A DNA stretch of 64,000 nt from IMG/VR virus record IMGVR_UViG_3300020039_000031, one strand, 5' to 3'. The position numbers and the translations under genes are program-made. The number at the start of each line of letters is the position of its first letter. The first letter of the stretch is position 1. The DNA is from a virus. Below are positions 2,539-41,115 of the stretch, one piece after another. Below the pieces are notes generated by a model that was given only the letters and a program-made list of their open reading frames with translations, ran no database searches and was not told where the DNA came from.

Positions 2539-4460
2539 TTCATGACTCCGTCGTTCGCCAAAACGTCTATCCAGCGTCGTTTATCGAACTCATTCTTACG
2601 AATTCGCTGATAACTGCTGACTGGCGTGTAAAACCCGACGACTCTTGCATATGTATCAGACACCGGTTTACCGCATTTTGGGCATGTGTTCATACCGATG
2701 AATGCGTGCTTGTCTTCGCAAACGCTGATCTTCGTGGTGAAAGCGAAATAAATAACCCCGTGGGACGCTACATAGTTCAGCATATCCCACGCGGTTTCTT
2801 CATTCTGAAATCTGTTCTCGATGTTGATATGGGCGATACAACCTCCGCCGCACTTCTTATCGAACAGAGAACCAAGCCTACACTTCTCTTGGATTGTGCA
2901 TTTCTCCATCAGCGGAATCCACTGATTCGAATATATAAAGTACTTGTTCTGCTCGAACAGGAGATTGTCCGCTTGGCAGATCACGCCAGCGCAGTTTTCC
3001 GCCGGTATCATTTCGATATTGAAAGAAAAGTCACAATCGAAATTATCTTTCACTTCGTTCATCACATCAAGAATCTCGGTTGCGAATTCAACAGCGGCTT
3101 CAGAATAAAACTTATTGCCAAGAACGTCTGTATCGATCAGGCCAAACAGATCCATGACCTCATACATACCGATACCGCCGATTGTACAGAACTGCTTGTC
3201 AAGCTCGACAGCTCCGTCCTGGTAGTTAGGCAAAAGCCCCTTCTCAATGTTTCGCTTGATGATGTGCCGCATGGAAAACAGTGCTTTACAGTCAAGGGTC
3301 ACGCGATCACGAAGGATGTTCAGATACTTCTTGCGGTTAAATCCGCTCTCATAGGCAATTCGCACGAGATTGATAGTGCTGACGCGGCAGGAACCGACAG
3401 ACAGCGCTGTACCGCCGATGGAGTTGATAAACGCATCGAGCTTTTTCGTATCTGATAACAGGCGGCAGCAGTTTGATAAGACGCCAACATTGTCGCTGAC
3501 GAAGAAGTTGCTGTCAGACCATCTAATGTTATGGTTGGAGCACCATCTGGCGAACTCTTCGTCTACGAATTTCCCGTTCTGATAGAGCAGTGAGTATGTT
3601 AAAACCGGATATGTGAACATATTGGTCTCACGAATCTCGCTGACTACATCCATAAATATCTTCTGCGCTTCGATCAGATCGTTGATGTGGTCAATGGCGA
3701 AAGTGCCGTCCGGGAACTCCACGCCTCCGAACAGCGATTCGAGATATGGATGATCGAAGATCGAAATATTAGTAAAGGCTGATTGATCTATCCTTAGGAA
3801 TGGTTGGTTAAGACGATAGATCAGCTTCTGATACTGCTGGCGAAGGTAGTAATCCGGATCTTTCATGAAGTATCCGTTCTCAACATCCTTCTTCCAGAAG
3901 TACCATGCCCAAATCAGTACATTGGGCATCCCAACTGCTCCGCTCTGGCGGTTTGACAGGAAGGAAACGAACTCGATCACATCATCGAAATATGTTGTAA
4001 GGTGCTTTGGAGCCTCGTTGTTGTAATTACCGAGGAAGAAAAGCCCTTCCTTGGCGAGCCTTGTGAAATCATTTGCCCAACAGTACGGGAAATAACTTGC
4101 TGTTGTACTATCGTTAAGGTAAAACCCCTTGCTGAATTCCTGCTCAAGCCATTGTTTCGCTGTGCGAAGTCCCCACTGCTTCTTGATTGTCATAAAGATC
4201 TTATTTAATCCAAAGAGCTTGTCCTCGCTCTTTGCTTTCTCCGTCATAAAGCTGCGGATATCCTTATGACTCACATTCGCATTTGGATCGATGCTCGCGT
4301 CGGCCACAGTTTCGTGATCAACGAAGTTCTCAATGAACTCCGAGAAATCGAGCTGGCTTGGATGAAGACCGTTGATATACTCAAAGTCCTCACCATATTT
4401 CTTTTTCAGTTCTTCAAGACACCGTTCAAAGTCCTTTGACAGTTTCAGTTCAATGTTCAT
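2535..4460 (-). CDS. nrdD: anaerobic ribonucleoside-triphosphate reductase, class III
   Basis: 641 aa; C-terminal Zn ribbon CPKCG followed by glycyl-radical-like motif ARVVGFYTP; ATP-cone-like N-terminus. Confidence 0.85.
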   Translation of the reverse strand: MNIELKLSKDFERCLEELKKKYGEDFEYINGLHPSQLDFSEFIENFVDHETVADASIDPNANVSHKDIRSFMTEKAKSEDKLFGLNKIFMTIKKQWGLRTAKQWLEQEFSKGFYLNDSTTASYFPYCWANDFTRLAKEGLFFLGNYNNEAPKHLTTYFDDVIEFVSFLSNRQSGAVGMPNVLIWAWYFWKKDVENGYFMKDPDYYLRQQYQKLIYRLNQPFLRIDQSAFTNISIFDHPYLESLFGGVEFPDGTFAIDHINDLIEAQKIFMDVVSEIRETNMFTYPVLTYSLLYQNGKFVDEEFARWCSNHNIRWSDSNFFVSDNVGVLSNCCRLLSDTKKLDAFINSIGGTALSVGSCRVSTINLVRIAYESGFNRKKYLNILRDRVTLDCKALFSMRHIIKRNIEKGLLPNYQDGAVELDKQFCTIGGIGMYEVMDLFGLIDTDVLGNKFYSEAAVEFATEILDVMNEVKDNFDCDFSFNIEMIPAENCAGVICQADNLLFEQNKYFIYSNQWIPLMEKCTIQEKCRLGSLFDKKCGGGCIAHINIENRFQNEETAWDMLNYVASHGVIYFAFTTKISVCEDKHAFIGMNTCPKCGKPVSDTYARVVGFYTPVSSYQRIRKNEFDKRRWIDVLANDGVMK

Positions 4461-4683: not shown

Positions 4684-5231
4684 TTCCTTTGATCTATGTG
4701 CTGAATCACCCGGTAGATGTCATCCCAGTTAAAAACCCGGTGCATACCGTGTATAGCCGCGTCATACCCGCGGTTGTGCGGCGCGTCCATCAGGATTTTG
4801 TGATAATCGCCGCCCTCTAAATTGTGGATTCCGTCGTCGATCAAAACATCGCCACGGATCATTTGTTTCTTTGTCGCCAGGATTACCTTGTCCCATGAAA
4901 GGAATGGATAGTATTTGAACAGCACGGTATCCATCTTCACTTCCACGGTCTTATAGTTGGAGTTCGTGACGATAAAAATATCGTGGCCGTCTGCCATTAG
5001 CTTCTGGAGCACTTCACTTGCTCCAGGAACCGGTTTGACATTCGCCCACAATTCCCCGTCTTTTAAGACGCCATATATTTGTTTGTGCGTAAGACCGGGA
5101 TAAAAATCTGTGATCCACCAACCAGTAACGTCTTCTGGATCAACATTCCGATCGTACTTTTTGTTGAGATATGGTATCCATGCCTGTAATAGCTGATCTA
5201 ATACCTCATCCATGTCTACAAGTATTGTCAA
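4680..5231 (-). CDS. 5'(3')-deoxyribonucleotidase, HAD family
   Basis: N-terminal DMDEVL (DxDxV/T HAD motif I) and VTNS; NT5C-like. Confidence 0.65.
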   Translation of the reverse strand: MTILVDMDEVLDQLLQAWIPYLNKKYDRNVDPEDVTGWWITDFYPGLTHKQIYGVLKDGELWANVKPVPGASEVLQKLMADGHDIFIVTNSNYKTVEVKMDTVLFKYYPFLSWDKVILATKKQMIRGDVLIDDGIHNLEGGDYHKILMDAPHNRGYDAAIHGMHRVFNWDDIYRVIQHIDQRN

Positions 5232-5794
5232 TCTGTCACCTCGTATCCATCTATAAGCGGCATTGGCTCGATCATACTATCGATCAGGTTATGTACATCC
5301 ACAATCAGATCGGACATTGGCCCGTTGTTATGGATCGTATAGTCTGCTTTCACACCGTCAAGCGAAGTCTCGGATGGATGATTCTTTTGCTTTTCGGTGA
5401 GACCGTTATCAAACCCATCACGAATTACACGAAGGAGCGACACATCAAACCCATATCCATTCATAGCACTGATCTCGTTCGGGAACCTTGTATCAGGAAT
5501 CAGAACAAAATCCCATTCGTCAGGGAAAAGATTGAGAACGCTTCCAATGAATCGAACCCAGAAGTTTTGATCCTGCGCACGAATAACGTCTGTGCCAACA
5601 TATTGCAGAAGCTGACGGCCATCCTCATCCTTCTTGCCGTCCCAACCAAAAAACATCTTACAGATGTATTTCAGCAGGTCGGCATAATGCGCAACCAGCA
5701 CACGAAAACCTCTTTCACGCAGCGTACTAGCCATGATCGACGCCGTAGTATCTTTTCCATGCTGCGCTTTCCCAGATATGCAGATTACCTTCAC
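5228..5794 (-). CDS. deoxynucleoside monophosphate kinase (T4 gp1-like)
   Basis: P-loop ISGKAQHGKDT; a start near 5794 avoids the overlap with the upstream gene. Confidence 0.6.
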   Translation of the reverse strand: MKVICISGKAQHGKDTTASIMASTLRERGFRVLVAHYADLLKYICKMFFGWDGKKDEDGRQLLQYVGTDVIRAQDQNFWVRFIGSVLNLFPDEWDFVLIPDTRFPNEISAMNGYGFDVSLLRVIRDGFDNGLTEKQKNHPSETSLDGVKADYTIHNNGPMSDLIVDVHNLIDSMIEPMPLIDGYEVTD

Positions 5795-8173: not shown

Positions 8174-9163
8174 TTAGTAGACTTTGTCATAAAAAGTGAG
8201 TGTAAAGTATTGTCTATTCCGTTCATATCCTTTGCAGTAGATCACGTCGCCCTTATGTATCGGTTCCTTATCGAATACCCGATTAAAAACCGTGAAGCGG
8301 CTTTCAACGCCGCTTCCGATCGATTTTGTGATGACGGAATACCCAAACTTCTTTCCGTCACTTTTTCTTGCGAGAGGGAAAACATCGAGAACATAGAGCT
8401 TTCTTCTGTCCTCTTCCTTGCCGGATGTGTATCCGACATAGCCCATAGCGTCGTGGAAGTTTTGTATCTTCACAATGTCTGGCAAATCTTCCAGACGAGC
8501 CGCCATGATTGCATCTTCAACTCCGCGCATGATCGCGTGGATATCCTGAATGACGTAGCTTTTGGACTCAGCGCCATTCTTCGTTTTCCCGTTTGAGTAT
8601 TGTGCGATAATCTCACCGAACGGTGTTCCATCGACAGATTCCTTCTTGATCTGTTTGACCTCTCCGTCCTTTAACAACTGACTGAACACATCAATGATGC
8701 GAAGCAATTCTCTTTGATTGCCGAAGTCGGAAAAGAAATCCAGCTTAACGAGGATCTCAAGTTGGCGCGAGTTTATGCTTGTCTTTGACTTAAGATCGGC
8801 GACCAAATCAATGAATCGTTCATAATGATTCTTCGAGAGGATGAACATTTCATCTGCGAGCTGTTCGCTCATGTACTTGATCGATGTGACACCCTTTGCG
8901 ATGATGTTTTTGTCCCGGTCGAAGTAGTACTCACCTTTGGATACGCCCCATTTTGGCATCGTCACTTTGATCCCGACCTTTGTTGCGTATGCAGTACCGT
9001 TTCTGATATCCTCATCGTTTGCCGCATTGTTCAAAAACGACGTGACAAATTCCAAAGGATGATAGTAGCGATAATATCCACACAGATACCCTAGAAGGCA
9101 ATATGCGATTGAATGATTATCACGCATTCCACCATTACTGGTGGCGTAGACTATATCTTCCAC
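8174..9163 (-). CDS. dnaE: DNA polymerase III alpha subunit (DnaE-type), C-terminal part / exon 2
   Basis: NHSIAYCLLGYLCGYYRYYHPLEF matches the DnaE NKSHSAAYAL...AHYPAEF finger motif; the true 5' boundary is near 9130. Confidence 0.7.
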   Translation of the reverse strand: MEDIVYATSNGGMRDNHSIAYCLLGYLCGYYRYYHPLEFVTSFLNNAANDEDIRNGTAYATKVGIKVTMPKWGVSKGEYYFDRDKNIIAKGVTSIKYMSEQLADEMFILSKNHYERFIDLVADLKSKTSINSRQLEILVKLDFFSDFGNQRELLRIIDVFSQLLKDGEVKQIKKESVDGTPFGEIIAQYSNGKTKNGAESKSYVIQDIHAIMRGVEDAIMAARLEDLPDIVKIQNFHDAMGYVGYTSGKEEDRRKLYVLDVFPLARKSDGKKFGYSVITKSIGSGVESRFTVFNRVFDKEPIHKGDVIYCKGYERNRQYFTLTFYDKVY

Positions 9164-9934
9164 TTATTGTGGTCTTTGCGCTTCCGCAGGTAACTCATCT
9201 TCCTGCGTACTCCCTTGCGGGATAGTCGTTGCACTTTCAGATAGTTTTTTCCATACAAAGCCGCCTGCTGAACCACATCTGCCATTCAAGCAGTGTGAAA
9301 TCATTCCGCGCGATACACCTGTTTGCCTCGCGGCTTCGCATGTAGACTGAAATGTGGAAATATAGGAACCGTCCAAAGAATACTGGGCAATACGATTACC
9401 TCTAGGTTGTCTTAACTGGTGCTTTAGCGCATGTACATTATTGTCTGCGTATGAAGCCCACTCCAGATTTGAAACATGATTATTATACTTGTCTCCGTCT
9501 ATGTGGTTCACAGTCGGAAGATTATCGCTGTTTGGTATAAATACTTCAGCAACCAACCTATGAACCGGGCACACGTTCGAAGTATGCTCACGTCTTAGGT
9601 TTACTACATAATAACCGTCTCCGGACCGGTCTTTACCGATCGATTCTGTAACCTTCATTTCACCGCCGTGAAGTGTTCGTATTACCCCGCGTGAGTCTAA
9701 GATTGTGCGAGTGAGGCTCCTCACCCTACCATCGTCGCTCACCTCGTAGTATCCTTCATAGCCACTAATTGATTTCCACATCTTCACTCCTATCTGCTTA
9801 GCACAGGATTGCCCTCAATACAGTAGGGTTCCCCCGTTAGCATATCTTTTAGCCGCCATTTCCTGCGGTTACTCAGCTTCGTAAGATACACACCCCTGAG
9901 TAATAGGGTTCACAAAGAATGGGCTAATCATTAA
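9131..9934 (-). other. ~0.8 kb intervening sequence splitting dnaE (candidate group I intron carrying an HNH homing-endonuclease ORF); boundaries approximate
   Basis: the dnaE frame breaks exactly inside the conserved (A)GYGF|NKSHSAAY motif: exon 1 ends ...SANYQF(G) and exon 2 resumes (G)MRDNHSIAY. Confidence 0.4.
9164..9787 (-). CDS. HNH homing endonuclease (NUMOD4 + HNH_3 + C-terminal HTH)
   Basis: WKSISGYEGYYEVSDDGRVRS (NUMOD4), VNHIDGDKYNNHVSNLEW (HNH), C-terminal ARQTGVSRGMISHCLNG. Confidence 0.8.
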   Translation of the reverse strand: MKMWKSISGYEGYYEVSDDGRVRSLTRTILDSRGVIRTLHGGEMKVTESIGKDRSGDGYYVVNLRREHTSNVCPVHRLVAEVFIPNSDNLPTVNHIDGDKYNNHVSNLEWASYADNNVHALKHQLRQPRGNRIAQYSLDGSYISTFQSTCEAARQTGVSRGMISHCLNGRCGSAGGFVWKKLSESATTIPQGSTQEDELPAEAQRPQ

Positions 9935-12181
9935 CCCAAATTGGTAATTCGCACTGTCTTCTATAATCTGCAAGAACTCTTTCGCTTCGCTCTCCGCCTC
10001 GTCACGAGGTTTTGGAGATTTCCCGCAATAACCTTCAAGGATCGACGGAAGCGCCGCTGCCAGTCTGTCATGCTGTTTTCGTCCTATCGCACGACGCACG
10101 TTATCCGCCTCGCTGCCAGTCAAACCGCAAATCTGCTGCAGGAATTTGATCGTGTCCTCCTGATACACCAGATAACCAAGGTTATCCTTTAGGAGTTCGT
10201 CGATCATTTCGGACGGATTCTTATGCGGTTTTCGTGCAAGAAGCTGATCTCTGTATGACGCACCGGACGGACGTATGCAAGCCGTGACGAGCGACATATC
10301 GAAGATACTCGACGTTTTGAACTTCTTAAAACAGTCTGCGGCAAATGCTCCCTCAAACTGGAAGATCGCAGTCAGGTTTTTCTGCATATCCGCCCACACA
10401 TTTTGATCGTTCCAATCGATTTCGTATGTATGCGGATAGTTCACTCCGAGATATTCGCAAGCATCCCGTATAACCTGCACTGTCTTCAAAACAAGGAAGT
10501 CGTATTTCGCCGCTCCGACCTCATGAGCCTCTTCCATATCCATCATTAGACAGTTCTCTCCGTCCTTATCAAACATCCCATAGTTATCTATAAGCGTGAT
10601 AGGACTGATGACCATGCCGGCCGGATGAACGGACTGGGAAACCTTTGTGTTGAACAAACCATCGAAGTAGTAGAAAACCTGTGGGTACTTTTTCGCAAGC
10701 ACATCGTATTCAGGATAGCTTGTGATCGGCTTCTTTTCTTTCTTGGATAAGTTGTCGATTGGAGTCAATTCTGCCTTAATTTTGTTAACGATATCGTACC
10801 CATACGGATTATCATCAACCTTTTCGCCTTCCTTGTATCCGTGTTCCTTATTCCAGTCGTTCATCTTTGCACGGCAAACCTCGTCGATGACACCCTTGGT
10901 CTGTATCGTGCCGAACGAAGCGACGCGGCCTGTCTTGTCCGCGCCAAATCTTGATATAATATGGCGGAATATCTCCGGACGGTCTTCTTCAATGCAGTCG
11001 ATATCAATATCGCCTATTTCTGTTCTGTCTTCGTTGCAGAAACGCGAGAAAACCGTCTGCCATGTTTCCGGGTTAAGGTCAATGATGTCTGTGACATACG
11101 CCACTCTGGAACCGCCGACGGAGCCGCGGGCAGTACCGATCGCCATGCCATGGTTCTTGCACCAGCATATAAGCTCGGACATAGACAGCATAAAGCCATC
11201 CATTTTGAGCTTTTGGAAAACCCGCATTTCTTCATCGATCGCGGCACGGAACGCATCCTTTTGCTCCGGTGGAATAACGCCGCTCTCAAGTTTTTCAGCA
11301 AACATACGTTCTACTGTTTCTGTAAACTTCGCAGAGTCGGCTTCTCGTGATCCGTACAGGATCGGGTATTTAATGCTTTTATCAAGTTCAAAATTTTCAA
11401 CGAGTTCGTCAAGCATGTTCGTGTTGGTAATAGCCTCCAGATACACATCCTCTGGAAGCGCGTTCTGACGCCGGAACATTTCGACCAGCTCGTCGTATGT
11501 TTTATATGTAAGGTCGAACGCATCTTCATCGCCAAATGATTTGTGCTTTGCTTTCAGAAGGATCGACCTGCACTCCGCTTTATACGGAGAAGAATTGTGT
11601 GTATCTGTTCCTGCGATCAATGGAGTGCCAAGATCCAAAGATAGCTGAAACAACCTTTTATTAAACGCGATCTGATCTGGATGGTTATGGGCTTGCACCT
11701 CCAGGAAGTCGTACTTCTGTGCCAATGCCATATAGTACGGATGACTTTCGGACAACCTGTTCAACGGTGACGCCAGACACGCGCTCGTTGACAAGATATT
11801 ATCGGATATACCGAGAAACTCATCAAAACTAATTCGGTTTGTATAGTAGAAGTGTCGTTTATCGCACGACATTGATACCAGCCTGTTCAGCTCGCGTACA
11901 CCATCCAGATTCCTCGCAAGCAGAACTGTGTGGTAGTTATCTCTGACTTTTTCGTCGAGGTTTTCTGTCAGGTAAATCTCAACGCCGTGGATAAACTTGA
12001 TACCCTGCTTGTCACAGTACAACTTTTTGGAAACCCAACCCATTGGTTTCCCATGCTCTGTAGACGCAATCGCCTTAACGCCGTCACGAACTGCAAGATC
12101 AACGTAATCTTCAAACTTCGTGCAACTATCGAGAAGGCTGTAATCGCTGTGAACGTGATATGGTATGTAGTTTCCTGCCAA
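9869..12181 (-). CDS. dnaE: DNA polymerase III alpha subunit (DnaE-type), N-terminal part / exon 1
   Basis: PHP domain YIPYHVHSDYSLLDS; palm GTARGSVGGSRVAY...DIDIDC. Confidence 0.85.
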   Translation of the reverse strand: MAGNYIPYHVHSDYSLLDSCTKFEDYVDLAVRDGVKAIASTEHGKPMGWVSKKLYCDKQGIKFIHGVEIYLTENLDEKVRDNYHTVLLARNLDGVRELNRLVSMSCDKRHFYYTNRISFDEFLGISDNILSTSACLASPLNRLSESHPYYMALAQKYDFLEVQAHNHPDQIAFNKRLFQLSLDLGTPLIAGTDTHNSSPYKAECRSILLKAKHKSFGDEDAFDLTYKTYDELVEMFRRQNALPEDVYLEAITNTNMLDELVENFELDKSIKYPILYGSREADSAKFTETVERMFAEKLESGVIPPEQKDAFRAAIDEEMRVFQKLKMDGFMLSMSELICWCKNHGMAIGTARGSVGGSRVAYVTDIIDLNPETWQTVFSRFCNEDRTEIGDIDIDCIEEDRPEIFRHIISRFGADKTGRVASFGTIQTKGVIDEVCRAKMNDWNKEHGYKEGEKVDDNPYGYDIVNKIKAELTPIDNLSKKEKKPITSYPEYDVLAKKYPQVFYYFDGLFNTKVSQSVHPAGMVISPITLIDNYGMFDKDGENCLMMDMEEAHEVGAAKYDFLVLKTVQVIRDACEYLGVNYPHTYEIDWNDQNVWADMQKNLTAIFQFEGAFAADCFKKFKTSSIFDMSLVTACIRPSGASYRDQLLARKPHKNPSEMIDELLKDNLGYLVYQEDTIKFLQQICGLTGSEADNVRRAIGRKQHDRLAAALPSILEGYCGKSPKPRDEAESEAKEFLQIIEDSANYQFGLMISPFFVNPITQGCVSYEAE

Positions 12182-13033: not shown

Positions 13034-14605
13034 GTGATCACATTGACCAGAAAGCAGCAAATCATCATGAGCCACCTGGCCGGGGTGAGCAACCGGCAGA
13101 TTGCATCGAAGATGCACATCAGCAAGGACACCGTGAACAAGTATGTGAAGGAGTACGATGCACAGCGGGCAGAATTGCTGACTCGGGATCCGGATGCAGA
13201 TCCAGAAGAGATTCTCCAGACCTTCGTAGAAGAACCGAAATACGACGCCAGTAACCGCACCCCGGTCATCGTAACGCCGGAGATGGAAGCCGCCGTGGAG
13301 CAGTGCCTACAGCTCAACGCTGTGAAGCGAGTGTCCGGGATGCGGAAACAGGCGATGAGGAAGAAGGACATCCACGAATACCTGGTTCGGGAAGGCTTTT
13401 CTGTAAGCTATTCCACGGTAAAACGGCTGGTGAACAGACTGGAAGCCCGTCATGAAGAGGCGTATATCCGGCAGGAATATCAGCCCGGTGAAACCTGTGA
13501 GTTCGACTGGGGCGAGGTCAAGCTGGATATAGCGAACAGCGGCTTCAAGAGATACCAGATGGCCGTATTCACAGCAGCATATAGCGGGGAGCGATTTGCC
13601 GTTCTCTACTGTTCACAGGATACGGCAGCATTCCAGGAATCCCATACGACCTTCTTTTCCTTCTGTCATGGAGCATTTCACACCATGGTCTATGACAACA
13701 TGAAGGTCGCCGTGCGGAAATTTGTTGGCCCGACAGAAAAGGAACCCACGAACGCGCTGCTGGAGTTGTCTCTGTATTATGGCTTCCAGTTTCGGTTCTG
13801 CAATGTACGCCGCGGGAACGAGAAGGGGCATGTGGAGCGCAGTGTGGATGTGGTTCGCCACAAAGCTTTCAGTGCACCCGGCTGTGACATTTTTGAATCT
13901 CTGGAGTCTGCCAACCGGTATCTGTTTGGCGTATGTGTCAGGCTGAACCGGGAAACGGCATCCAACGGCCAGGTTCCGGCAGAACTCTTTGAAGAAGAAC
14001 AGCGCTGTCTACTGCCGGCCATGCCGAGGTTCGAGTGCTGTATCCGGACGGAAAACAGCGTGGACAAGTACTCTACAGTCATGGTTGCCGGTAATCATTA
14101 CTCTGTGCCGGACACGCTTGTGGGAAAGCGTGTGCAGGTACGTCTTTACACGAGCAAGCTCGTTGTTTACTACGAAAACCGGATCGTGGCGACTCACAGC
14201 CGGAGTTTCCGCCCTCATGACTGGACGATTGACATCTATCACTATCTCCGAACCCTGAAACGCAAGCCCGGCGCTCTGCCCGGCAGCACGGCACTGCTGC
14301 AGTCCGACTCTGTTGTAAAGCAGATTTACGACACTTATTACACACAGGATGCTCGTACCTTCCTCGAAGTTCTGGAGGTCATATACGAGCTAGGCGCGGA
14401 TACTGTACAGCAGGCGCTTAAACGTATGGAGCGTCTGTCGCCGAAGGATATGAGCGCCCAAAAGATCCGCGTCGTATGCGAGAACACACTGCGTAAGGTG
14501 CCTCAGCAGCCGGGTTCTGACCATCTCAGTGAAAAAGCAAAAAGCACGCTCTCTCAATATGATCTGCTCAGACAACTGCAGATGGAAGGGAGTGTCGCTG
14601 TATGA
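13034..14605 (+). CDS. istA: IS21-family transposase IstA
   Basis: 523 aa, N-terminal HTH (QIASKMHISKDTVNKY); DDE region; overlaps istB by 4 nt. Confidence 0.8.
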   Translation: MITLTRKQQIIMSHLAGVSNRQIASKMHISKDTVNKYVKEYDAQRAELLTRDPDADPEEILQTFVEEPKYDASNRTPVIVTPEMEAAVEQCLQLNAVKRVSGMRKQAMRKKDIHEYLVREGFSVSYSTVKRLVNRLEARHEEAYIRQEYQPGETCEFDWGEVKLDIANSGFKRYQMAVFTAAYSGERFAVLYCSQDTAAFQESHTTFFSFCHGAFHTMVYDNMKVAVRKFVGPTEKEPTNALLELSLYYGFQFRFCNVRRGNEKGHVERSVDVVRHKAFSAPGCDIFESLESANRYLFGVCVRLNRETASNGQVPAELFEEEQRCLLPAMPRFECCIRTENSVDKYSTVMVAGNHYSVPDTLVGKRVQVRLYTSKLVVYYENRIVATHSRSFRPHDWTIDIYHYLRTLKRKPGALPGSTALLQSDSVVKQIYDTYYTQDARTFLEVLEVIYELGADTVQQALKRMERLSPKDMSAQKIRVVCENTLRKVPQQPGSDHLSEKAKSTLSQYDLLRQLQMEGSVAV

Positions 14606-15390
14606 CGAGCGCCAAGACGAACGCCGACATAAAGGAACTGTGCAAGATCCTGCGGCTGAACGGTATCGCGAAGAGCTTTGAGACCATGGAGCAGGAAGCT
14701 GCGGACTACGAGGATTTTCTGTACCGAATATTATCTCAGGAACTGCAGGAAGCCGAGGAACGGATGAAACAGTCCCGAATCCGACGTGCCCACTTTCCGT
14801 ACAAAAAATATCTGGAAGACCTTGAATTGGAATGCTTGCCAAGGGATATGCGCAAGCGGCTGCCGGAGCTCGCTGGATTGGACTTCATCCGCAACGGCCA
14901 AAATCTCATTCTCACCGGCAATCCCGGCACTGGAAAAACACATGTGGCCATTGGCCTCGGTATTCGAGCTTGCGAGCAAGGCTTCCGCGTTCTGTTCACC
15001 ACTGTTCCATATTTGGTAACAGAACTGAAGGAAAATGTGAATGCAAAAACGCTCAAGGCGTTTGAGAAACGGTTTGAAAAGTATGATTTGGTCATAGCCG
15101 ATGAGATGGGCTATGTCTCCTTTGACCGAGAGGGCGCAGACCTCCTGTTTACAAACCTCTCTCTGCGCGCCACCCAGAAATCCACGATTATTACATCCAA
15201 CCTGACCTTTGAGCGCTGGGACGAGATATTTGGCGACGCTGCCATTACCAGCGCCATTGTGGACAGACTCACCTACAAAGCCATCCTGGTAGATATGGAG
15301 GGCGACTCATATCGTTTCCGCGAGACCCTCCGTGCCAATGGAGCTTCTTTTGAACGACTGATGGAGGGTAAGAACGATGCCAAAGCTTGA
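14602..15390 (+). CDS. istB: IS21-family helper ATPase IstB
   Basis: Walker A GNPGTGKTH, Walker B VIADEMGY. Confidence 0.85.
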   Translation: MTSAKTNADIKELCKILRLNGIAKSFETMEQEAADYEDFLYRILSQELQEAEERMKQSRIRRAHFPYKKYLEDLELECLPRDMRKRLPELAGLDFIRNGQNLILTGNPGTGKTHVAIGLGIRACEQGFRVLFTTVPYLVTELKENVNAKTLKAFEKRFEKYDLVIADEMGYVSFDREGADLLFTNLSLRATQKSTIITSNLTFERWDEIFGDAAITSAIVDRLTYKAILVDMEGDSYRFRETLRANGASFERLMEGKNDAKA

Positions 15391-30053: not shown

Positions 30054-30138
30054 TGGTGCCGGCAGAGAGACTCGAACTCTCAAGCCATGCGGCATCGGTA
30101 CTTGAGGCCGACGTGTTTGCCAATTTCACCATGCCGGC
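30054..30138 (-). tRNA. class II tRNA (long variable arm), anticodon probably CAA (Leu)
   Basis: 85 nt GCCGGCA...TGCCGGCACCA, encoded CCA, T-arm GAGTTCGAGTCTC, anticodon loop cTCAAgt; next to a tyrosine integrase. Confidence 0.55.
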
Positions 30139-30150
30139 GTCTTACTTGCG

Positions 30151-30705
30151 TTATCTGGACAGCTCATCTAGTCGTTTCATAATGCTGTCCACATCTTCTG
30201 TGTACCAATAAAGCTCCGGAACTCCACGCTCTTCCAATAACTTTACGATAAGTTCCTGTACAGGCTTTTCCTGCTGCTGGAACAGATTCCCCGATGGGAC
30301 TCTCCTTACAGGATGCAAATCTCCGAACCTCGTAATATTCGCCGCCTGCCCCAGGCAAGCATAGTAGATCATCGTCATAGGATATCCGTGGTTTCTATAG
30401 CGAGGCATCCTCGGGTTTTTCAGCATATCTTCGATATACTCATTATCCGGCGTGACCACGCTGCGCACATAATCGATCCATGAATCATCGTAGTAAGCAA
30501 GTTTGCAGGCGTCGAGAACCTTCTTGCTTGTGTCATTCACAGACGACCCGTATTTCGCCCACCACGTATCCAATGGAGCATAATACCGGTTTGTTACCGT
30601 CTGTGCGTGCTTAGCGCGAGCGTGATCAACACCATGCTTTGTGAGCATACCAACTCCGACCGCTTGCCAAGCAAGCGCTTTGAGAATTACACCGACATGA
30701 ATCAT
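30151..30705 (-). CDS. hypothetical protein
   Basis: 184-aa ORF between the tRNA and the integrase. Confidence 0.35.
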   Translation of the reverse strand: MIHVGVILKALAWQAVGVGMLTKHGVDHARAKHAQTVTNRYYAPLDTWWAKYGSSVNDTSKKVLDACKLAYYDDSWIDYVRSVVTPDNEYIEDMLKNPRMPRYRNHGYPMTMIYYACLGQAANITRFGDLHPVRRVPSGNLFQQQEKPVQELIVKLLEERGVPELYWYTEDVDSIMKRLDELSR

Positions 30706-30808
30706 TGAAATATCACCACCATATATGATTTATACTATTTATAATACCTTAAAAACTATTATCCTGACAAGTCGGATAAAAACAAAACCCTATATGACCG
30801 TCAAAACT

Positions 30809-31624
30809 TTATACGGCACACATTTCTTCTTCTTTGATATTGGAGTTTAAATAGTTGTATGTCTCACTTCCGAGATTGAGATTCCTGTACGCCTCCTCGA
30901 TCTCTTCGCCTGTGATCCCGATGTAATCCAAAGTAATTGCTACCGATGAATGGCCGAATATCTTGGACAGAAGCAGGAGCTTTCTCGGATCGTTGTTTGA
31001 CATCACCATCTGGTGATACGCGAATGTCTTGCGAAGCGTATGCGTTGACATATGGATGTTCAGGTTAAGATCTCTTGCGATCCCCTTCAATATGTCGTCG
31101 ATTGCGCTCCTGTGGAGCGGGACGTTCTTGTTGCCGCTATTCCTTGACTGACTGCGGAACATATAGTCACTCAGACATATGCCCGGTGTATGCTCAAGAT
31201 AAAGAGTGACCGCCTCGATTACCGCTGTATTGATCGTTATGTAGCGGTTCTTTTTCCTTGTTCTTGTATTTCTCGTCTTCTGTTCAAAAACCGGGAAGCT
31301 GTCCTTGAACGTCAGATTGTCGTTGATAAGATTTGTGAACCGCAAGAGCCGCAGATCGCTGACACGCAGCCCGAAGTTAATACCGACGATAAACAGCATG
31401 TTATCCCTGTACCGTCCCTTGGATATCAGATACTTCGATATTCGCATGATATCATCCATGCTTTTAATCGGTTCCGCCGCGTGCTCCGGTGCAATATCAG
31501 GAGTCACGACCTCTTTCGCTGGTTCGATCATACCGGCTTGCAGTTTTCTGTTGTTCTTCTGTAATGCGGAGACATCGATCGTTTGACGAGCTTTGAACTC
31601 CGACAGGTTGATTACGTCCGCCAT
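30809..31624 (-). CDS. int: tyrosine recombinase / phage integrase
   Basis: box I GLRVSDL, box II HTLRKTFA, LGHSSVAITLDY with catalytic Tyr. Confidence 0.8.
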   Translation of the reverse strand: MADVINLSEFKARQTIDVSALQKNNRKLQAGMIEPAKEVVTPDIAPEHAAEPIKSMDDIMRISKYLISKGRYRDNMLFIVGINFGLRVSDLRLLRFTNLINDNLTFKDSFPVFEQKTRNTRTRKKNRYITINTAVIEAVTLYLEHTPGICLSDYMFRSQSRNSGNKNVPLHRSAIDDILKGIARDLNLNIHMSTHTLRKTFAYHQMVMSNNDPRKLLLLSKIFGHSSVAITLDYIGITGEEIEEAYRNLNLGSETYNYLNSNIKEEEMCAV

Positions 31625-32399
31625 ACGTTAGCCTCCTATAGATGTCCATTGCATCTAGCATCAACTTCTGGCATGGAAATAGTTTTAGTCCAAGAACCTC
31701 TTCTACAAACCTTGGCTTTGTCGATTGCTTTACTCAGTGGAACAATCTTCATAAAATTTCACTTTCATTACAGTTTCCAAGACGATTCAATGAACCGCTC
31801 CGTAAAGATGCTTTCTGGCGGATCGAGAGGATTTGCTTTGAAGGCTGCTAGCGCCCTGCTCAATCTCACCATATACAAATCGTCATCCATCATACGCGCT
31901 CCTGTATAACACGTTTCGAGATAATCCACTATCTTTTGTTCCTGCTCTGTCAGTCTTGATGACCCGAAAATAATGTGTGGCTCGTACTCTGGACATCCAT
32001 GTATAACATTGCGCCAGTCTTTGCACCCGGACTGCTTTAGGCAATTTCTACAATACTCGTGTTCATCCATCATAAAAATCCCTTTTCATATATCACCAAC
32101 CAGACCATGCACTATCGTCTGTTGGATCGATATAATGATTTGAACTCATTTTTACACTATTACAGCACTTGCATTTAACTACATATCCACAACCATCATG
32201 ATCTTTCTCGACATAACAATGTTTAAGATCAAGCGGCTGTCTACACCAATAACCAGCTTGTGTCTTTGAATGACCGCACGGGTCTTTTGGCTTTGCGCCA
32301 ACCGTCTTATATAACGCCCATTGGATTTTAGCAAGCGCGTAATCGTTAACTCGGATTTCCCATATCAAGAATTTCATATGTTGTTATCAAAATCCACTT

Positions 32400-32849
32400 T
32401 CATTTTCGTTCTTTTAAAATGACATGAACGTCAAACTCGTGAATATCTCTCCCGTAAAGATATAAATGCATTCCTGTCGAACCATCATTGAAGATATACT
32501 TACCGATCCAGGATCGACGAGATAAATGACCTGCCTTACGGAATTCATTCACATTGCGTTTGGCAAGCGCATCTACCTCGCGCTGTGTCTCGCACCAGCA
32601 GCCATCATCGAAATAATCTTGCCATACACATGTTGATATTCGCTTGTCCCATGTTACCGGTGCAAATTCACTCCATGAAGAATCCATATCATAGAAGTCG
32701 AATACCAGACAGTCTGTATAGTAATGTCTGAATAGCCAGGAAATAAATCGCTTCGTCAGTTTGACCTCGTGAACATCTATGTCTCTTTTAGTTTGCCCGT
32801 CTATGAATTCTTGGCGTATATCAACGCGGGTATTCTTGTTCATATACAT
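32400..32849 (-). CDS. hypothetical protein
   Basis: 149-aa ORF in a run of small co-directional genes. Confidence 0.35.
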   Translation of the reverse strand: MYMNKNTRVDIRQEFIDGQTKRDIDVHEVKLTKRFISWLFRHYYTDCLVFDFYDMDSSWSEFAPVTWDKRISTCVWQDYFDDGCWCETQREVDALAKRNVNEFRKAGHLSRRSWIGKYIFNDGSTGMHLYLYGRDIHEFDVHVILKERK

Positions 32850-32861
32850 AAAAATCTTCTT

Positions 32862-33362
32862 TCATTTAACGTATTCGGCCTTCAATGGGAGCAACACCGT
32901 CGTTCGTTGTTGCATCCACGGTTTGTCTTCCGGCGCGATTTCTTTCCCGTATTCATTCAAAGAAACGAAATTCCCAACCGTAAATCTGACATGATCGCCA
33001 GTCTTCGGAGCGTCCAGCAGGTTGTACCATGTTTTAAGGCAGCAAACCTTCGCAACGCACCTTGTGTACAGCTCATCTACGAATAGAAGAGTACCATCAT
33101 GTTTGCAAGATTCAGAGGTAAAGAATTGGAAGTCTGCCGATGGATCAAATACTAAGTCGAGACGAGCCGAAAACCGCTCCCCTCTGTCGTCCGTCCCCGT
33201 CACGGTTAGCTCGCGCTCGCCTTCAAGTTGCAGATCAAAAATTGGTTCCGCTTCATACTCTGTTGCTTTACTCCAATCCCTGTCGGCGTAAGATGAACGA
33301 GTTTTGTCGGAAGCAACGACGCAACAATATTCTAATGACTTGCTCATCAAAACCTCTTTCAT
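32862..33362 (-). CDS. hypothetical protein
   Basis: 166-aa ORF. Confidence 0.35.
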   Translation of the reverse strand: MKEVLMSKSLEYCCVVASDKTRSSYADRDWSKATEYEAEPIFDLQLEGERELTVTGTDDRGERFSARLDLVFDPSADFQFFTSESCKHDGTLLFVDELYTRCVAKVCCLKTWYNLLDAPKTGDHVRFTVGNFVSLNEYGKEIAPEDKPWMQQRTTVLLPLKAEYVK

Positions 33363-35038
33363 TCGTACAAATATTTCCCACGTTCTCGAACAGGAGCCAT
33401 GTTTCGGTTTTTAATATCTTCAAACACCTTTGAGTTGTATGGCATCGAATACGCAAAGCCCGATGAAAAATATACGTAGCATGTCGTATGCTCGTCGAAT
33501 GTAATGATGACGTATGTGTTTGCCCTTGTTATAGCTTGACCACCTAACCCGCCAAACCCAAGCGCGGTACTTGACCAAACCTGCTCAAAGGTATGAACTT
33601 CAATATCATCCAGTAAAGCCCCTCGTTCTGTGAGGTCTTTTTCGATAGCGTGAAGCTCGTTAACTATTTGCTCAAACCGATTGTTCATAAAAAGCCTCTT
33701 TCATTTCATTTCAATAGGTTCGACTTCCATATAGTAGTCACCATAGAACCAGCTTGTCCACGGACTCTCATGTTTAGCTCTTGCCGAGGCAATCTCGCCA
33801 TTAAACTCCCCAACTGCATCTCCTAAAAACATATTGTTTTCAAGCTGGTACACAAGGGCTTCCCTTTTAGCCTGGAGATTTGAAAGATTTGCATCGTGAT
33901 TGATCCGCTCATCAACGATACAGATGCCAGACACAAAGATGGCAATAATGGCAAGCACACAAAGAGTTACTGCAATTAAACTTGTGGTATCCCAACCATG
34001 TTCCGACGCTGACTTAGCAATAAGTCCGCTACCAACAGCCACGCTAATGAATATCAATGTTAGAATCATTTAATACCTCTCTCCCGCCAGTTGTTACAGC
34101 CGTTCTGCTCGTTCTTGAATCTCCCATACGGCGGTTCGATGGGGCACTTGCATTCTCCTAGCCCGCAGGACAACCAAGGACGCTGATATCTTGCACCATC
34201 AGAAGTAACACCGCCATTCGGCACGAAATATTTACAGTGCCCACATAGCTTAATAGCCATAAAAATATCCTTTCATTCCTCTCTGCGCTGACCGAAAGCA
34301 CAGTAAAACCCATCGCCAGTGTGCCGTTCGAGTTCGATGCAATACGTCTTACCCTTTGGTCTAAACCAGCACTCGTCGCACCGCACGACATGGACGGCAT
34401 CGATGGTGGGAGCGTTAAGCAGCTGCCTAATAACAATGTTCATCCCATTTGTTCTTTCCCATATTCTGATACCATCTTCTGTATCACATTTTTCCTCGGA
34501 AGTGGGGAGCGCATCCGCATCAATTAGCCTCATAAAAATCGCCTTTCATCATAATCCAGATCAGAAGTCGCCACGGATTGCTTTACGGACTTCATCCTGC
34601 CAGTATCTGATGGTCCTCACAACAGCCGCACACTCCTTAGCTTCGTCGTCTCGGCCTTCTTTTTCTAGCCATTCTGAACGACTGGCCAGCAACTCAATCT
34701 GCACCTCCATGCACTGATCGATCATATGTAACCCGCGAGATTGCTTTTCAAGTAACTTACGTCTTTTGAATAAGGTCATAAAAGCCGCCTTTCATCCGCA
34801 CGCATCCATTACCCAAGCAATAAATACGAAGAACCTGACAACCGGTAGATTACTGATAATAACCGTGAGGATAAGCGCCCACCCCTTTTCTCGGTTATCA
34901 TCAGACGTGATTTTCTCTGGAAGATCGCTCCAAAAATCATCTTTATGCACATTTGCAAATGCGACCAATACAAGATACCAGAAAGAGATACCAATGTGTG
35001 AATGACATACCAATGGTTGGTCAATATTTCTTCTTTTA

Positions 35039-35737
35039 TCATTTTCCCTTTCCCCGGAAAGAAACCTTGGCGTCAAAACCGTGGTTTTCGATCTTTTCTT
35101 TATCCGTAAGCCCAACTGAGGCAATGCGCTCTTGTGACTGCCTCTCCAATGAGAAATACTCCTCGAACGAGAGATAGATATCCAATGGATCAATGCAATT
35201 CCCGATCCCGCACGCCTTCAATAGCGGCAGATGCTTCTCCGTTCTCACATTGGTGCCGTGGAATATCGTATGATGATCGATACTTTTGATGACCTTGAAG
35301 TCGTTTTGGTCGATTGCACGAGTAAGAACATCAACCTTTTTCAGAATGGTTGCCCTGTCGTATCGCCAGAAGGATGTGCTGATTTGCCCGCTCACCGCGA
35401 AACCGAAAGAAATTACATCCAGTTTGTTCAGACGACGCTGTTTAGAGTAGTTCTTCCATGTCGTCAGCAACTCAACCTTATAGTTCGTCGGTATACCGTA
35501 ATCATTCTTATCTGTAATCTCGAACAGGAACAGCCAGAAGGTGTTGCATACTTGCAACAAGACAAACCTATATCGATCACGATCGTCCGAACGCCAACGT
35601 GTTAGTACGCTGAAATACTCGCACATCAAATCCTTCGTAAGAACGAAAGAGTCGGTGCGATCAAACGTCGTTGAGTTGTCACGGTATATATTTTGCAAAT
35701 AATCATAGAAGTCCGTGTTCTTATCAATGATCCTCAT
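35039..35737 (-). CDS. hypothetical protein
   Basis: 232-aa ORF. Confidence 0.4.
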   Translation of the reverse strand: MRIIDKNTDFYDYLQNIYRDNSTTFDRTDSFVLTKDLMCEYFSVLTRWRSDDRDRYRFVLLQVCNTFWLFLFEITDKNDYGIPTNYKVELLTTWKNYSKQRRLNKLDVISFGFAVSGQISTSFWRYDRATILKKVDVLTRAIDQNDFKVIKSIDHHTIFHGTNVRTEKHLPLLKACGIGNCIDPLDIYLSFEEYFSLERQSQERIASVGLTDKEKIENHGFDAKVSFRGKGK

Positions 35738-35754
35738 CTGATGGTCCTCATCTC

Positions 35755-35961
35755 TTAGATACTCCTGTTCTCGAACAGAATTTTCTCCGCTTTTTTGAGC
35801 TCACACGTTGGGCAGACCCAGCGTCCCTCCGGGACGGGTTCACCACAGCATACACAGAAAGAGTCATTGTGATAACTCACCTTCTCGCCGATTGACAGAC
35901 CAGAATCCCGCCATTTGATGGATTTGGCGTCGTCGGCCTTACTTCCCTTTGGAGCTCTCAT
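35755..35961 (-). CDS. small zinc-ribbon protein
   Basis: CVCCGEPVPEGRWVCPTCE, same module as the N-terminus of 36179..36835. Confidence 0.4.
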   Translation of the reverse strand: MRAPKGSKADDAKSIKWRDSGLSIGEKVSYHNDSFCVCCGEPVPEGRWVCPTCELKKAEKILFENRSI

Positions 35962-36178
35962 GCGAAATATGTATCAAGAGTTTTCTTGAGATTACGGAGC
36001 GCGTCTACTTCGTCATGCCCTATGGCAATGTGGCGACTCGTACCAACACGCGCTTCAATACCGATCGCGTGCTCGCCGGTGATCTTATGCATCAGATCGC
36101 GTTTCCCAACGAAATCCACGCCGCGTTCGTGGAGATACCGGCGCATCTCCTTTGCCTTTTTCATGCGATGTTTCCGCA

Positions 36179-36835
36179 TCATATCACCTCAATCTGACAG
36201 GATTTCATTACGAGCAGCGCTGCGTTGTGCGCCTCCTCCGATGTTCCCGCACAACACTTTGAGTCAACCACAATATCGTTTTCCTTGAAAGCGGAACGAA
36301 GATATAGTGCGTTGGAAACCACGCAGATGTCGGTGCAAAACCCGACCACTTCGATCACAGCATCATGGAAAAGATCGTAGTACAGCTTCCAGTGTATGTA
36401 TGCGAAGGCAGGTTTTCTGATATGCGGCTCATCAGATATAAGCGCCTCAATTCTATCATCTATTTCCCACCCGCGTGTTCCGTGCATACAGTGTTCAATA
36501 GGGAACAACTTACCCTCGTGCGTATCTGAGTAGTTTTCCCAATGCGTGTCCTGCGTGGCAACGATAGGCCAGCCATTCCTTTTATACTCCTTTATCTTTC
36601 GGACGATATTGGGAACGGCAGCTCGCGCATTTTCTGATCCGAGACGACCTGTGATAAAATCGTTCTGCGCATCGACAACTACCAGCACACGGTATGGCTT
36701 CTTCTGCGCTTTCTCTTTGCGTTCTGCGCTGAAAAACTCATTCGGATCATATCTTGCTGTTTTCTCTTCACAGGATCGGCACACCTGCCGCCCCTCCGGT
36801 ACATATGTACCGCAGCATACACATACGTCCTGCAT
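36179..36835 (-). CDS. isochorismatase-family hydrolase, nicotinamidase (PncA)-like, with N-terminal zinc ribbon
   Basis: VLVVVDAQNDF (Asp), ATQDTH, GFCTDICVVSNA (catalytic Cys); N-terminal CVCCGTYVPEGRQVCRSCE. Confidence 0.6.
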   Translation of the reverse strand: MQDVCVCCGTYVPEGRQVCRSCEEKTARYDPNEFFSAERKEKAQKKPYRVLVVVDAQNDFITGRLGSENARAAVPNIVRKIKEYKRNGWPIVATQDTHWENYSDTHEGKLFPIEHCMHGTRGWEIDDRIEALISDEPHIRKPAFAYIHWKLYYDLFHDAVIEVVGFCTDICVVSNALYLRSAFKENDIVVDSKCCAGTSEEAHNAALLVMKSCQIEVI

Positions 36836-36836
36836 A

Positions 36837-37232
36837 TCAGTCGATCAGCGCAACGGTGTCATACGGAATCCACATCTTCGGATTGAAGTACAGCGTGTAA
36901 TGATACTTCCCGACGAAATTCGATGACACATCTTCTACGACATATGTAACATTGTCGCTCAGACCGACAAAATGCTTCTGATATGACCCGTCGTCGTTCT
37001 CGACAATGATCTCAAGCTGGTTATCCGCTGTATCCGCCTTGATCGACATTTTCCCTGTCATCTGGAAGAGCGTGTCTCCCTGGATGCAGTTGATAACCGT
37101 GAGCTGGCGCACAACATTGAAGTTATCCGCCTGCTGAGACAGATTGTAAGAAACCTTATTCGCTTCTGTCTCGCATCCGCAGAGCGCGAACGCGATCACA
37201 GCGCACAACAGAATTGAGATAATCTTTTTCAT
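36837..37232 (-). CDS. lipoprotein
   Basis: signal peptide MKKIISILLCAVIAFALCGC with lipobox. Confidence 0.5.
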   Translation of the reverse strand: MKKIISILLCAVIAFALCGCETEANKVSYNLSQQADNFNVVRQLTVINCIQGDTLFQMTGKMSIKADTADNQLEIIVENDDGSYQKHFVGLSDNVTYVVEDVSSNFVGKYHYTLYFNPKMWIPYDTVALID

Positions 37233-38060
37233 CTAAGTATTTCCCTTCTTTAACGATGTATTCGGGCCGGGATTTCCACCCGACATACCAGCCGCTTAAA
37301 TGGCCGCTCTGTTACATAGCGTCTACTGACAGGGTCAACTTCGTGTAACGTCGCCCTCCCTGCCGCCTCCGGTTTATCATGCTTACGCATATTCGCTCCG
37401 GTCAGCTCTATTCCGCCACCGAATACTATATTAAGCAGTCAGCCGCTTGTTCTCACGGCGGACCTTGCGTTTCGCGGCTTTCTTGTCAGCACGGAGCTGG
37501 TTGAGCCGCGCATGATCACACCAATAGTGCCTCGCAAACCTGTCGATGTGATAGCTTTTCTTATATGCGTTATTTTTCATCAAGATATTCTGTCATTGAA
37601 GCTCTTTGGCATCAATATATTGTGTTATTTTGACGATGAAACACTCGTTTTATACACTTCCGATGATTTGAAACAGCTCGTCCGTAAAACTATCGTCGAT
37701 CTGGTTCTCTTCATCGCATCCGAAGAAATCATCGAATTCTACACGTTCAAAACGCTCATGCGGATTCGCCATTCCGACAACACTTTTGTGTGGTATATCA
37801 TAATGCACAAACGGGTAGCTCATATTAGTTTGGTCGGGAAACTCTAATGTCGTCTGAGCAGAACGACTAAGATCAAGGCCGCATTCTCGTGCCCACAAAA
37901 AAAACGAAACTTTTTCGTTTTCGCTATTACAGTGAACAACAAGTCTGCCTTTAATAAATTCTCTATACTGTTCCTCGGAAGCTATCATTACTTTCCTCCG
38001 TATGGGCGGTCTAAAGCCGCCCGATCGATTCTTTTCTTTTCGTAGCGACTCGTTTCAAAA

Positions 38061-39040: not shown

Positions 39041-39046
39041 ATCGCA

Positions 39047-39307: not shown

Positions 39308-39329
39308 ATTTACCTCCCAGTATGTATCG

Positions 39330-39406
39330 TGGTGCGCCAGAGAGGACTCGAACCTCCGACAGGCAGATTAAAAATCAGCTACTCTAACCATCTGAGTTAC
39401 TGGCGC
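39330..39406 (-). tRNA. tRNA-Lys (anticodon TTT)
   Basis: GCGCCAG...CTGGCGCACCA; D-arm ACTCAGATGGTTAGAGT; anticodon loop tTTTTaa; T-arm GGAGGTTCGAGTCCTCT. Confidence 0.65.
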
Positions 39407-39762: not shown

Positions 39763-39767
39763 ATAAT

Positions 39768-39844: not shown

Positions 39845-39848
39845 ATGA

Positions 39849-41092: not shown

Positions 41093-41115
41093 GTACTTAC
41101 TCCTTATGATAGTTA

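Follow-up and report, generated by a model that had tools for sequence, protein, structure and literature searches.

Background

A phage gene for a replicative DNA polymerase that reads as two pieces with an endonuclease gene between them raises the question of whether the polymerase is truly split or is made whole at the RNA level. Such a gene is found in IMG/VR virus record IMGVR_UViG_3300020039_000031, a DNA stretch of 64,000 nucleotides (nt) that is referred to here as the window. On its minus strand, an 813-nt insert (9121..9933) separates exon 1 of dnaE from exon 2. Judged from its sequence, this dnaE very probably carries a splicing-competent group I intron of the IA2 type that encodes an I-HmuI-type homing endonuclease. 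A preliminary description of the locus had favored a group I intron that encodes an HNH homing endonuclease. Four lines of evidence now agree with that proposal: restoration of the reading frame, a ribozyme core with covariation, independent covariance models, and homology to I-HmuI.

Insertion point within dnaE

Three open reading frames (ORFs) lie in the same frame of the minus strand with stop codons between them (Table 1). Exon 1, which encodes the PHP, DNA_pol3_alpha and DNA_pol3_finger domains of Pfam, is collinear with uninterrupted homologs. Across the site of the insert, uninterrupted database homologs and 80 related viral loci read S-A-(S/N)-Y-Q-F-G-Y-N-H-S-(I/V)-A-Y. The intron boundaries were set from these homologs together with the P1 and P10 pairings described below, which gives a splice junction of ...UUUGGGU/intron...G/AUAAUCAU, with exon 2 opening on the AU of a split Tyr codon. 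Excision of exactly 9121..9933 yields ...SANYQFGYNHSIAY..., the same pattern as in the 80 uninterrupted loci and the database proteins, and only this 813-nt excision restores the window peptide QFGYNHSIAY. Another junction, ...CAAUUU/GGG...AAUG/CGU, was rejected; its peptide, QFRDNHS, occurs in no homolog, and it leaves P1 without a U.G pair.

Comparison with uninterrupted homologs, which the preliminary description had suggested, thereby fixed the insertion point and corrected several details. That description had the polymerase break at SANYQF(G)/(G)MRDNHSIAY, across a gap of ~0.8 kilobases (kb) at 9131..9934. The position within the motif and the existence of the insert both stand, whereas the junction was ~4 nt off (homologs read QFGYNHS) and the limits of the gap are replaced by 9121..9933. 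The residues GGMRD, formerly counted to exon 2, come from an in-frame reading of intron sequence, as the uninterrupted homologs indicate. The break does lie inside a conserved DnaE motif, as had been noticed. Phage SANYQFG/YNHSIAY corresponds to FANYGFN/KSHAAAY of Taq and to FAGYGFN/KSHSAAY of E. coli, within the fingers, and on solved structures the insertion site falls between the equivalents of E. coli N757 and K758 in the motif GYGFNKSH.

Structure and covariation of the intron RNA

The helices of a group I core can be assigned along the insert, on both sides of the endonuclease ORF (Table 1). In the scheme that Michel and Westhof are said to have set out in 1990, subgroup IA is defined by two additional helices, P7.1 and P7.2, which separate P7 from the 3' strand of P3. 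Both helices are found at this place in the insert, which puts it in subgroup IA; its predicted structure is that of a phage group I intron of the IA2 type. A peripheral domain follows the 5' strand of P3 and precedes P4. It consists of hairpin X (CCCU/AGGG), a stem Y of 9 base pairs (bp), GUGUAUCUU with AAGAUAUGC, and hairpin Z on the inside (CCGC-AGGAAAUG-GCGG).

Introns at the same dnaE site were found in four further lineages, and the five lineages (the window; L081; L226, L228 and L249; L248 and L250; L251) were aligned after deletion of the ORF, with the P6a loop trimmed to 8 nt. The structure comprises 83 pairs in 16 helices (P1, P10, P3, P4, P5, P6, P6a, P7, P7.1, P7.2, P8, P9.0, P9, X, Y and Z), and 97.1% of the cells in the five copies are standard pairs. 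Changes on both sides of a pair occur at 24 pairs, versus 2-4 in controls whose partners were slid by 1-3 columns, and in none of 500 shuffles did the pairing, the number of double changes or the covariation score come up to the observed values. The compensatory pairs are spread over P10 (1), X (2), Y (6), Z (2), P6a (4), P7.2 (2), P8 (2), P9.0 (1) and P9 (4), those of P9 covering four of its five pairs; the one in P10 is a change from A-U to G-C in L081. P1, P3, P4, P5, P6, P7 and P7.1 are conserved and hardly vary among the five copies. The U.G pair and three G-C pairs of P1 are present in all five, as is the terminal G before AUAAUCA.

For P3, the 7 nt directly 5' of 'AAC' were compared with the 7 nt after GAAG in 11 members of the intron's subfamily (defined in the next section). 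Cognate strands pair at 7/7 positions in 10 of the 11 members, non-cognate strands do so in 1 of 110 combinations, and the observed total was reached in 0 of 20000 permutations. Folding of the ORF-deleted window sequence gave z = -3.05, and the minimum free energy (MFE) centroid recovers P3, P4, P5, P6a, P7.1, P7.2, P8 and P9.

The exon itself bears on the pairing with the guide. The Gly codon that faces the guide is GGG in 5/5 intron alleles versus 11 of 56 distinct empty alleles (20%; p ~3e-4 if the lineages are independent). This bias fits putative selection for P1 or co-conversion.

Three other structural assignments were considered and set aside. Single-sequence MFE folding favored a hairpin CUCAG/CUGAG, which was dropped; only X and Y keep compensatory changes in other copies. 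P3 had been drawn as (A/G)UGCU/AGCG(C) just before P4, and this was given up for the covarying P3, whose strand lies 5' of GUGAAC, although a 3-bp continuation may still form. The Rfam alignment of the subfamily member L206 was unhelpful as a guide to P3, with its P3 pairs flagged as non-canonical.

Independent models and the intron family

Two half covariance models, R1 and R2, were built from ORF-less subfamily introns in other genes and contain no sequence from the window or the dnaE site; among the source introns, four pass Rfam Intron_gpI. R1 (5' half, P3 to P6) has one full-length match in the 64-kb window, at 9797..9919 (77.5 bits, E 4.6e-14), and R2 (3' half, J6/7 to P9) likewise has one, at 9117..9237 (87.3 bits, E 4.1e-18). 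The two matches flank the ORF on either side.

The intron belongs to a large family. At least 120 viral contigs contain the 22-nt P7-P7.1 segment ACGACUAUCCCGNAAGGGAGUA, which in the family is followed on its 3' side by the P7.2 hairpin, GAAG(C/U)G, the P8 hairpin and (A/U)GAUAUAGUCU. Eight ORF-less family members were tested, and all passed Rfam Intron_gpI, with scores of 61-91 bits. The td-like P4-P6 sequence of the window recurs in a subfamily of 22 contigs; the ORF-less members L206, L234, L238 and L247 of this subfamily pass Rfam (the ORF-less family range overall being 60-91 bits), and the architecture of L234 is that of the window intron minus the ORF.

As a separate observation, the P7-P7.1 motif ACGACTATCCCGNAAGGGAGTA is present in at least 120 IMG/VR loci (L106-L225), often directly after the end of an ORF. 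ORFs that abut or overlap J6/7-P7 seem to be common in this intron family.

Among annotated phages, megablast of the whole locus gave no match, and distant blastn of the ORF-deleted intron matched the 3' core only. A scan of genome contigs for the guide and P3 signature gave no match and so no clue to the host. One locus, L227, proved to be a chance match to the exon and guide pattern, with DnaE, HNH and core all absent. In Staphylococcus phage SapYZU04 (L252, 55720..58788), the gap between the 'capsid protein' gene orf92 and orf93 is unannotated; it has three weak matches to the subfamily 5' model (E 0.03-0.8) and a blastn match to the P5-P7 region of the window, and it may hold unannotated introns.

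The intron-encoded endonuclease

The complete NUMOD4/HNH ORF that had been noticed in the gap is confirmed by its Pfam domains, which are NUMOD4 (47.8 bits), HNH_3 (28.5), I-HmuI_NUMOD-like (33.9) and NUMOD1 (22.1, where the curated cutoff is 22.8), and by its full-length homology to I-HmuI. The match to PDB 1U3E (I-HmuI) has E 2e-10 over residues 2-175, and VHRLVA and (N/D)H.DG.K.NN...NL.W are conserved. The product is thus predicted to be an I-HmuI-like HNH homing endonuclease, with putative activity and specificity. The ORF is intact and the HNH motif is conserved in all five same-site lineages.

The probable start is the ATG at 9781, 5 nt past a Shine-Dalgarno sequence, AGGAG (9791..9787), that overlaps P6a, and an M-W-K start is conserved in the three copies compared. 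At the other end, the last 26 codons cross P6a', P6', J6/7, P7, P7.1, P7.2 and P3', and the stop codon falls in the P8 loop; the ORF stops there in each of three copies inspected. Free-standing phage homologs align only up to residue ~180-184, so the tail of the ORF appears to be core sequence read in frame and not conserved protein. With respect to this core-overlapping segment (window 9164..9244, minus strand), either the RNA is under double constraint or the protein tail is merely tolerated.

Proposed mechanism and alternative explanations

In the mechanism we propose, dnaE would be transcribed as a single pre-mRNA, in which the guide of the folded intron would pair with the end of exon 1 (P1) and with exon 2 (P10). 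Two-step, guanosine-initiated transesterification would then remove the intron and join ...CAAUUUGGGU to AUAAUCAUUC, such that the ligated exons carry the junction CAATTTGGGT/ATAATCATTC. Splicing would restore the fingers motif ...ANYQFGYNHSIAY... and a DnaE of 1064 amino acids (aa). The 205-aa HNH endonuclease, whose gene lies in the terminal loop of P6a, would be made from its own AGGAG-ATG. As the analogy with I-HmuI and I-BasI suggests, it would nick intron-less dnaE near the site in a mixed infection, and repair would then insert a copy of the intron (homing). The enzyme may also harm competitors, or do so in place of homing.

Several observations weigh against an active intron of this kind. 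Rfam Intron_gpI (RF00028) has no match at its gathering score of 50 anywhere in the window, so that the search for an intron core proposed in the preliminary description came out negative by that model, although a full group I core can be drawn. A permissive Rfam scan found only the J8/7-P7'-P9 segment (GAAGAUAUAGUC and hairpin) at 16.1 bits and E 0.3, over model positions 220-251, where J8/7-P7' of the window agrees with the Rfam consensus. We attribute the miss to the 537-nt ORF loop in P6a, which splits the core. Rfam likewise fails to detect L081, another copy at the same site. P2 and P9.1/P9.2 are not present in the window intron, in which the 5' strand of P3 begins 1 nt after P1 and only 8 nt follow P9. 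A P2 hairpin is present in some subfamily members, and we treat P2 and P9.1/P9.2 as variable helices that do not define the class. P1 has only 5 bp, and base +1 of exon 2 is unpaired between P1 and P10. With the X-Y-Z domain, ~70 nt separate the 5' strand of P3 from P4, a stretch that measures ~3 nt in canonical group I introns (a short J3/4). The five same-site copies are as diverged as their hosts (core 75-80% nt, ORF 59-65% aa, exons 58-77% nt), and therefore give no sign of recent transfer. Both splicing and nicking are, moreover, inferred from sequence. Finally, a study of Bastillevirinae found that some phage introns splice in vivo and not in vitro, so strict self-splicing is not guaranteed here.

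If the intron were dead, dnaE would be expressed as two polypeptides, an N-terminal one ending ...QFGLMISPFFVNPITQGCVSYEAE and a C-terminal one with its own start, and these would assemble non-covalently. This was the alternative named in the preliminary description, and we consider it very improbable. Both halves are long open frames, no intron is called by Rfam at the insert, and an in-frame ATG (GGA AUG CGU) lies 7 nt ahead of exon 2 with a purine-rich GGUGGA before it. This ATG, however, lies within or beside the P9 stem at a spacing of 1 nt, and a scan of the insert found no sigma-70-like promoter, such scans being weak evidence. A genuinely two-piece DnaE is also unsupported by the RNA: the core helices are all unbroken, as are the U.G pair, the terminal G and P10, and in five lineages they are maintained by compensatory changes; the Gly codon of the exon is held at GGG to suit the guide. 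The break lies within the conserved fingers motif, and 80/80 of the closest relatives have a one-piece polymerase. A fractured gene, in which split-intein halves on the two dnaE parts flank a free-standing endonuclease and are joined by protein trans-splicing, is scarcely credible at this locus. The order of gene part, endonuclease ORF and gene part is that described from metagenomes by Dassa et al. (2009), three DnaE loci included, and a cyanobacterial DnaE split intein breaks the same motif only 3 codons upstream of the intron site (its C-extein starts CFN, equivalent to G-F-N of GYGFNKSH; PDB 1ZDE). Intein N halves in that study span 88-105 residues and the C half has catalytic residues ending in Asn-Cys, whereas here the exon-1 frame runs for ~21 codons past the junction before its stop and ~15 codons precede exon 2. 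Pfam found a Hint domain in none of the three ORFs, residue +1 is Tyr and not Cys, Ser or Thr, stop codons part the frames, and the covarying ribozyme core accounts for all of the intervening non-coding sequence.

A further alternative concerns only the second half of our proposal. The intron may splice but no longer home, being inherited vertically with an HNH protein that is inactive or is kept for another purpose, for example to nick dnaE in relatives that lack the intron and infect the same cell. We regard this as rather unlikely, though with a real chance of being correct. It would suit the host-like divergence of the five copies, and near-identical copies in divergent hosts were not found. 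I-HmuI itself cuts intron-plus as well as intron-less alleles, and an intron HNH is reported to act in interference competition of PhiPA3 against PhiKZ (PMC11620839). Competition and homing can, however, coexist. The ORF is intact with a conserved HNH motif in five lineages, and occupancy is sporadic (0/80 nearest relatives, yet lineages at 40-53% DnaE identity), which requires either transfers or many precise losses. The features of the locus are collected in Table 1.

Table 1. Coordinates of the interrupted dnaE locus and of the predicted intron RNA elements (window positions)
Feature	Position	Strand	Description
dnaE exon 1	9934..12181	-	749 codons and first base of Tyr750 codon; end ...CAA UUU GGG U
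Group I intron, 813 nt	9121..9933	-	Start UAAUGAUUAGCCC, end ...GGAAUGCGUG, terminal G = 9121
dnaE exon 2	8174..9120 (stop codon included)	-	Start AU AAU CAU (...Y N H S I A Y...); Pfam HHH_6
ORF, 770 aa	9869..12181	-	PHP, DNA_pol3_alpha, DNA_pol3_finger (Pfam)
ORF, 207 aa counted from GTG	9164..9787	-	NUMOD4, HNH_3, I-HmuI_NUMOD-like, NUMOD1 (Pfam)
ORF, 329 aa	8174..9163	-	HHH_6 (Pfam)
HNH endonuclease ORF, 205 aa	9164..9781 (ATG 9781, TAA 9166..9164)	-	In P6a loop
P1	9938..9934 with 9924..9920	-	Exon UGGGU with guide GCCCA; U.G pair at 5' splice site
P10	9932..9925 with 9119..9112	-	Guide AAUGAUUA with exon 2 UAAUCAUU (+2 to +9); 8 bp
P3	9918..9911 with 9180..9173	-	UCUUUGUG with CGCAAAGA; subfamily covariation; MFE centroid
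X-Y-Z peripheral domain	9840..9908	-	Between P3 5' strand and P4
P4	9837..9833 with 9807..9803	-	ACGGG/CCUGU; 100% of cells paired
P5 hairpin	9828..9812	-	CCCU...AGGG; 90% of cells paired; J5/4 CAAU
P6	9802..9801 with 9234..9233	-	GC/GU
P6a	9796..9790 with 9244..9238	-	CAGAUAG/CUAUCUG; AAA between P6a 3' and P6 3' strands
P7	9227..9222 with 9154..9149	-	GACUAU/AUAGUC, invariant; J6/7 GCAAC ahead of 5' strand
P7.1	9221..9212	-	CCC-GCAA-GGG
P7.2	9207..9185	-	CGCAGG...CCUGCG; two covarying pairs
P8 hairpin	9172..9160	-	CCAC-AAUAA-GUGG; ORF stop codon in loop
J8/7 and P7 3' strand	9149..9159	-	AAGAU and AUAGUC
P9 hairpin	9144..9129	-	CCACC-AGUAAU-GGUGG, then AAUGCGUG, then 3' splice site

Distribution of introns in dnaE

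The intron site is empty in 80/80 nearest relatives, which are up to 78% identical over a junction region of 279 aa; the close polymerase relatives are all on viral contigs of ~60-140 kb. The nearest annotated phages are the Clostridioides phages LIBA2945 and LIBA6276, at 55% aa identity, with dnaE uninterrupted at the site. Occupied alleles are found at a range of DnaE identities to the window, namely 61-69% (L081), 56-67% (L248, L250 and L251) and 40-53% (the L226 type), and the same-site endonucleases are 63-67% identical to that of the window by tblastn. Such patchy occupancy is the pattern expected of a mobile intron, and the intron may be mobile at the present day. The idea that the intron is clearly younger than its host genes was not borne out by the partition identities.

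Related phages have inserts at further dnaE positions, at aa ~390 (L023, L025, L059 and L078), aa 572 (L065, L066, L069 and L070), aa ~611 (L059) and aa 669. In L073, two ORF-less dnaE inserts (4044..4360 and 5139..5415) pass Rfam Intron_gpI at 86 and 71 bits, and the subfamily 5' model, with its X-Y architecture, also matches the inserts of L023 and L025 (aa ~390) and of L059 (aa ~611). The dnaE gene is a multi-site intron target in this clade of gut or rumen phages.

Many 'DnaE' proteins in the database (P0003-P0007, P0019-P0021 and others) are only 436-440 aa long and start with MS(L/I)VTACIRPSG, which corresponds to ~aa 626 of the full protein. These short entries would fit gene calls that restart past the aa ~611 intron seen in L059.

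Comparison with known systems

The closest parallel is provided by the I-HmuI/SPO1-type introns, in which a conserved motif in the fingers region of a phage replicative polymerase is also interrupted and the HNH ORF also lies in an intron loop. The window ORF shares the NUMOD4 - HNH - NUMOD/helix-turn-helix (HTH) layout of I-HmuI and aligns with it over the full length, although identity is low. In SPO1, SP82, Bastille and Pf-WMP3, the same kind of element is found in family A polymerase genes, where the intron enzymes make a nick in one strand, no more than a few nt away from the insertion site, and repair then brings about homing. The host gene there is of family A (Pol I-like), whereas the window gene is of the unrelated family C (DnaE / Pol III alpha), and the target site is hence unrelated as well. 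The window intron further differs in the lack of P2 and P9.1 and in its extra domain between P3 and P4, and nicking by its endonuclease is suggested by analogy.

With the Twort/T4-type IA2 introns of Rfam RF00028, the window intron shares J6/7-P7 (AACGACUAU), P7.1 with a GNRA-type loop, P7.2, P3', P8, J8/7-P7' (GAAGAUAUAGUC) and the td-like P4-P6 sequences (ACGGGGGAACC...CAAUCCUGUGCUAAG), and it resembles the Twort and td sequences themselves. It differs from these introns in falling under the Rfam threshold, in the ORF in P6a, in the missing P2, in a 3' end with P9 only and in the X-Y-Z domain.

At the protein level, the cyanobacterial DnaE split intein (Ssp/Npu, insertion point 'a') is likewise a selfish element that breaks this fingers motif. 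PolIII-alpha inteins are known to cluster in a 75-aa stretch of the fingers, and the intron site falls within this hot spot. The intein, however, acts through an in-frame Hint domain and trans-splicing of the products of two distant genes, whereas the window element acts at the RNA level, with stops between the frames. The fractured genes of Dassa et al. (2009) resemble the window locus in their order of gene part, endonuclease ORF and gene part and in having DnaE among their hosts, but the spacer in the window is a predicted ribozyme without intein halves, and its endonuclease is of the HNH type in place of GIY-YIG or Vsr-like.

The X-Y-Z domain is conserved and covarying, and it also occurs in L234, L244, L238, L247, L023, L025 and L059. 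We know of no precedent for such a domain between P3 and P4, a systematic search not having been made. One idea is that GCU (9841..9839) could pair with AGC (9182..9180) and extend P3, which would create a three-way junction; this pairing would share nucleotides with the base of stem Y and with the end of P3. It is conceivable, though we think it improbable, that X-Y-Z within a three-way junction in P3 marks a new subclass of phage IA introns at several dnaE positions (aa ~390, ~611 and 749/750) in one clade, and, separately, that the intron and the split intein represent an independent double hit 3 codons apart.

The element itself appears to be of an ordinary, known mobile type, in a host gene and at a site for which no published report was found; no paper on a group I intron in a phage dnaE turned up in the literature searched, which was incomplete. 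The locus would add the family C (DnaE) replicase to the genes well known to host phage group I introns that encode HNH endonucleases, next to those for family A polymerases, ribonucleotide reductase (RNR) and terminase, and RNA-level and protein-level parasites would have chosen the same conserved fingers motif. There is also a consequence for annotation. The locus would be called as two DnaE fragments and an HNH gene, where the correct product is predicted to be one polymerase of 1064 aa, and Rfam-based pipelines miss the intron, because its core is split by the ORF.

Genomic surroundings

In the window, dnaE is part of a phage replication module with genes for NrdD, PhoH, a PAPS-reductase-like protein, DnaG primase, DnaB helicase and a PD-(D/E)XK nuclease. 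An IS21-family pair lies in this module on the plus strand (13034..15390), between the PAPS-reductase-like gene and the primase gene, and consists of istA (HTH, rve and Mu-transposase C domains; 523 aa) and istB (IstB_IS21, 217 bits). Eleven tRNA genes are located on the minus strand at 30057..53624, several of these in clusters at 39.3-40.1 kb and 44.5-44.6 kb.

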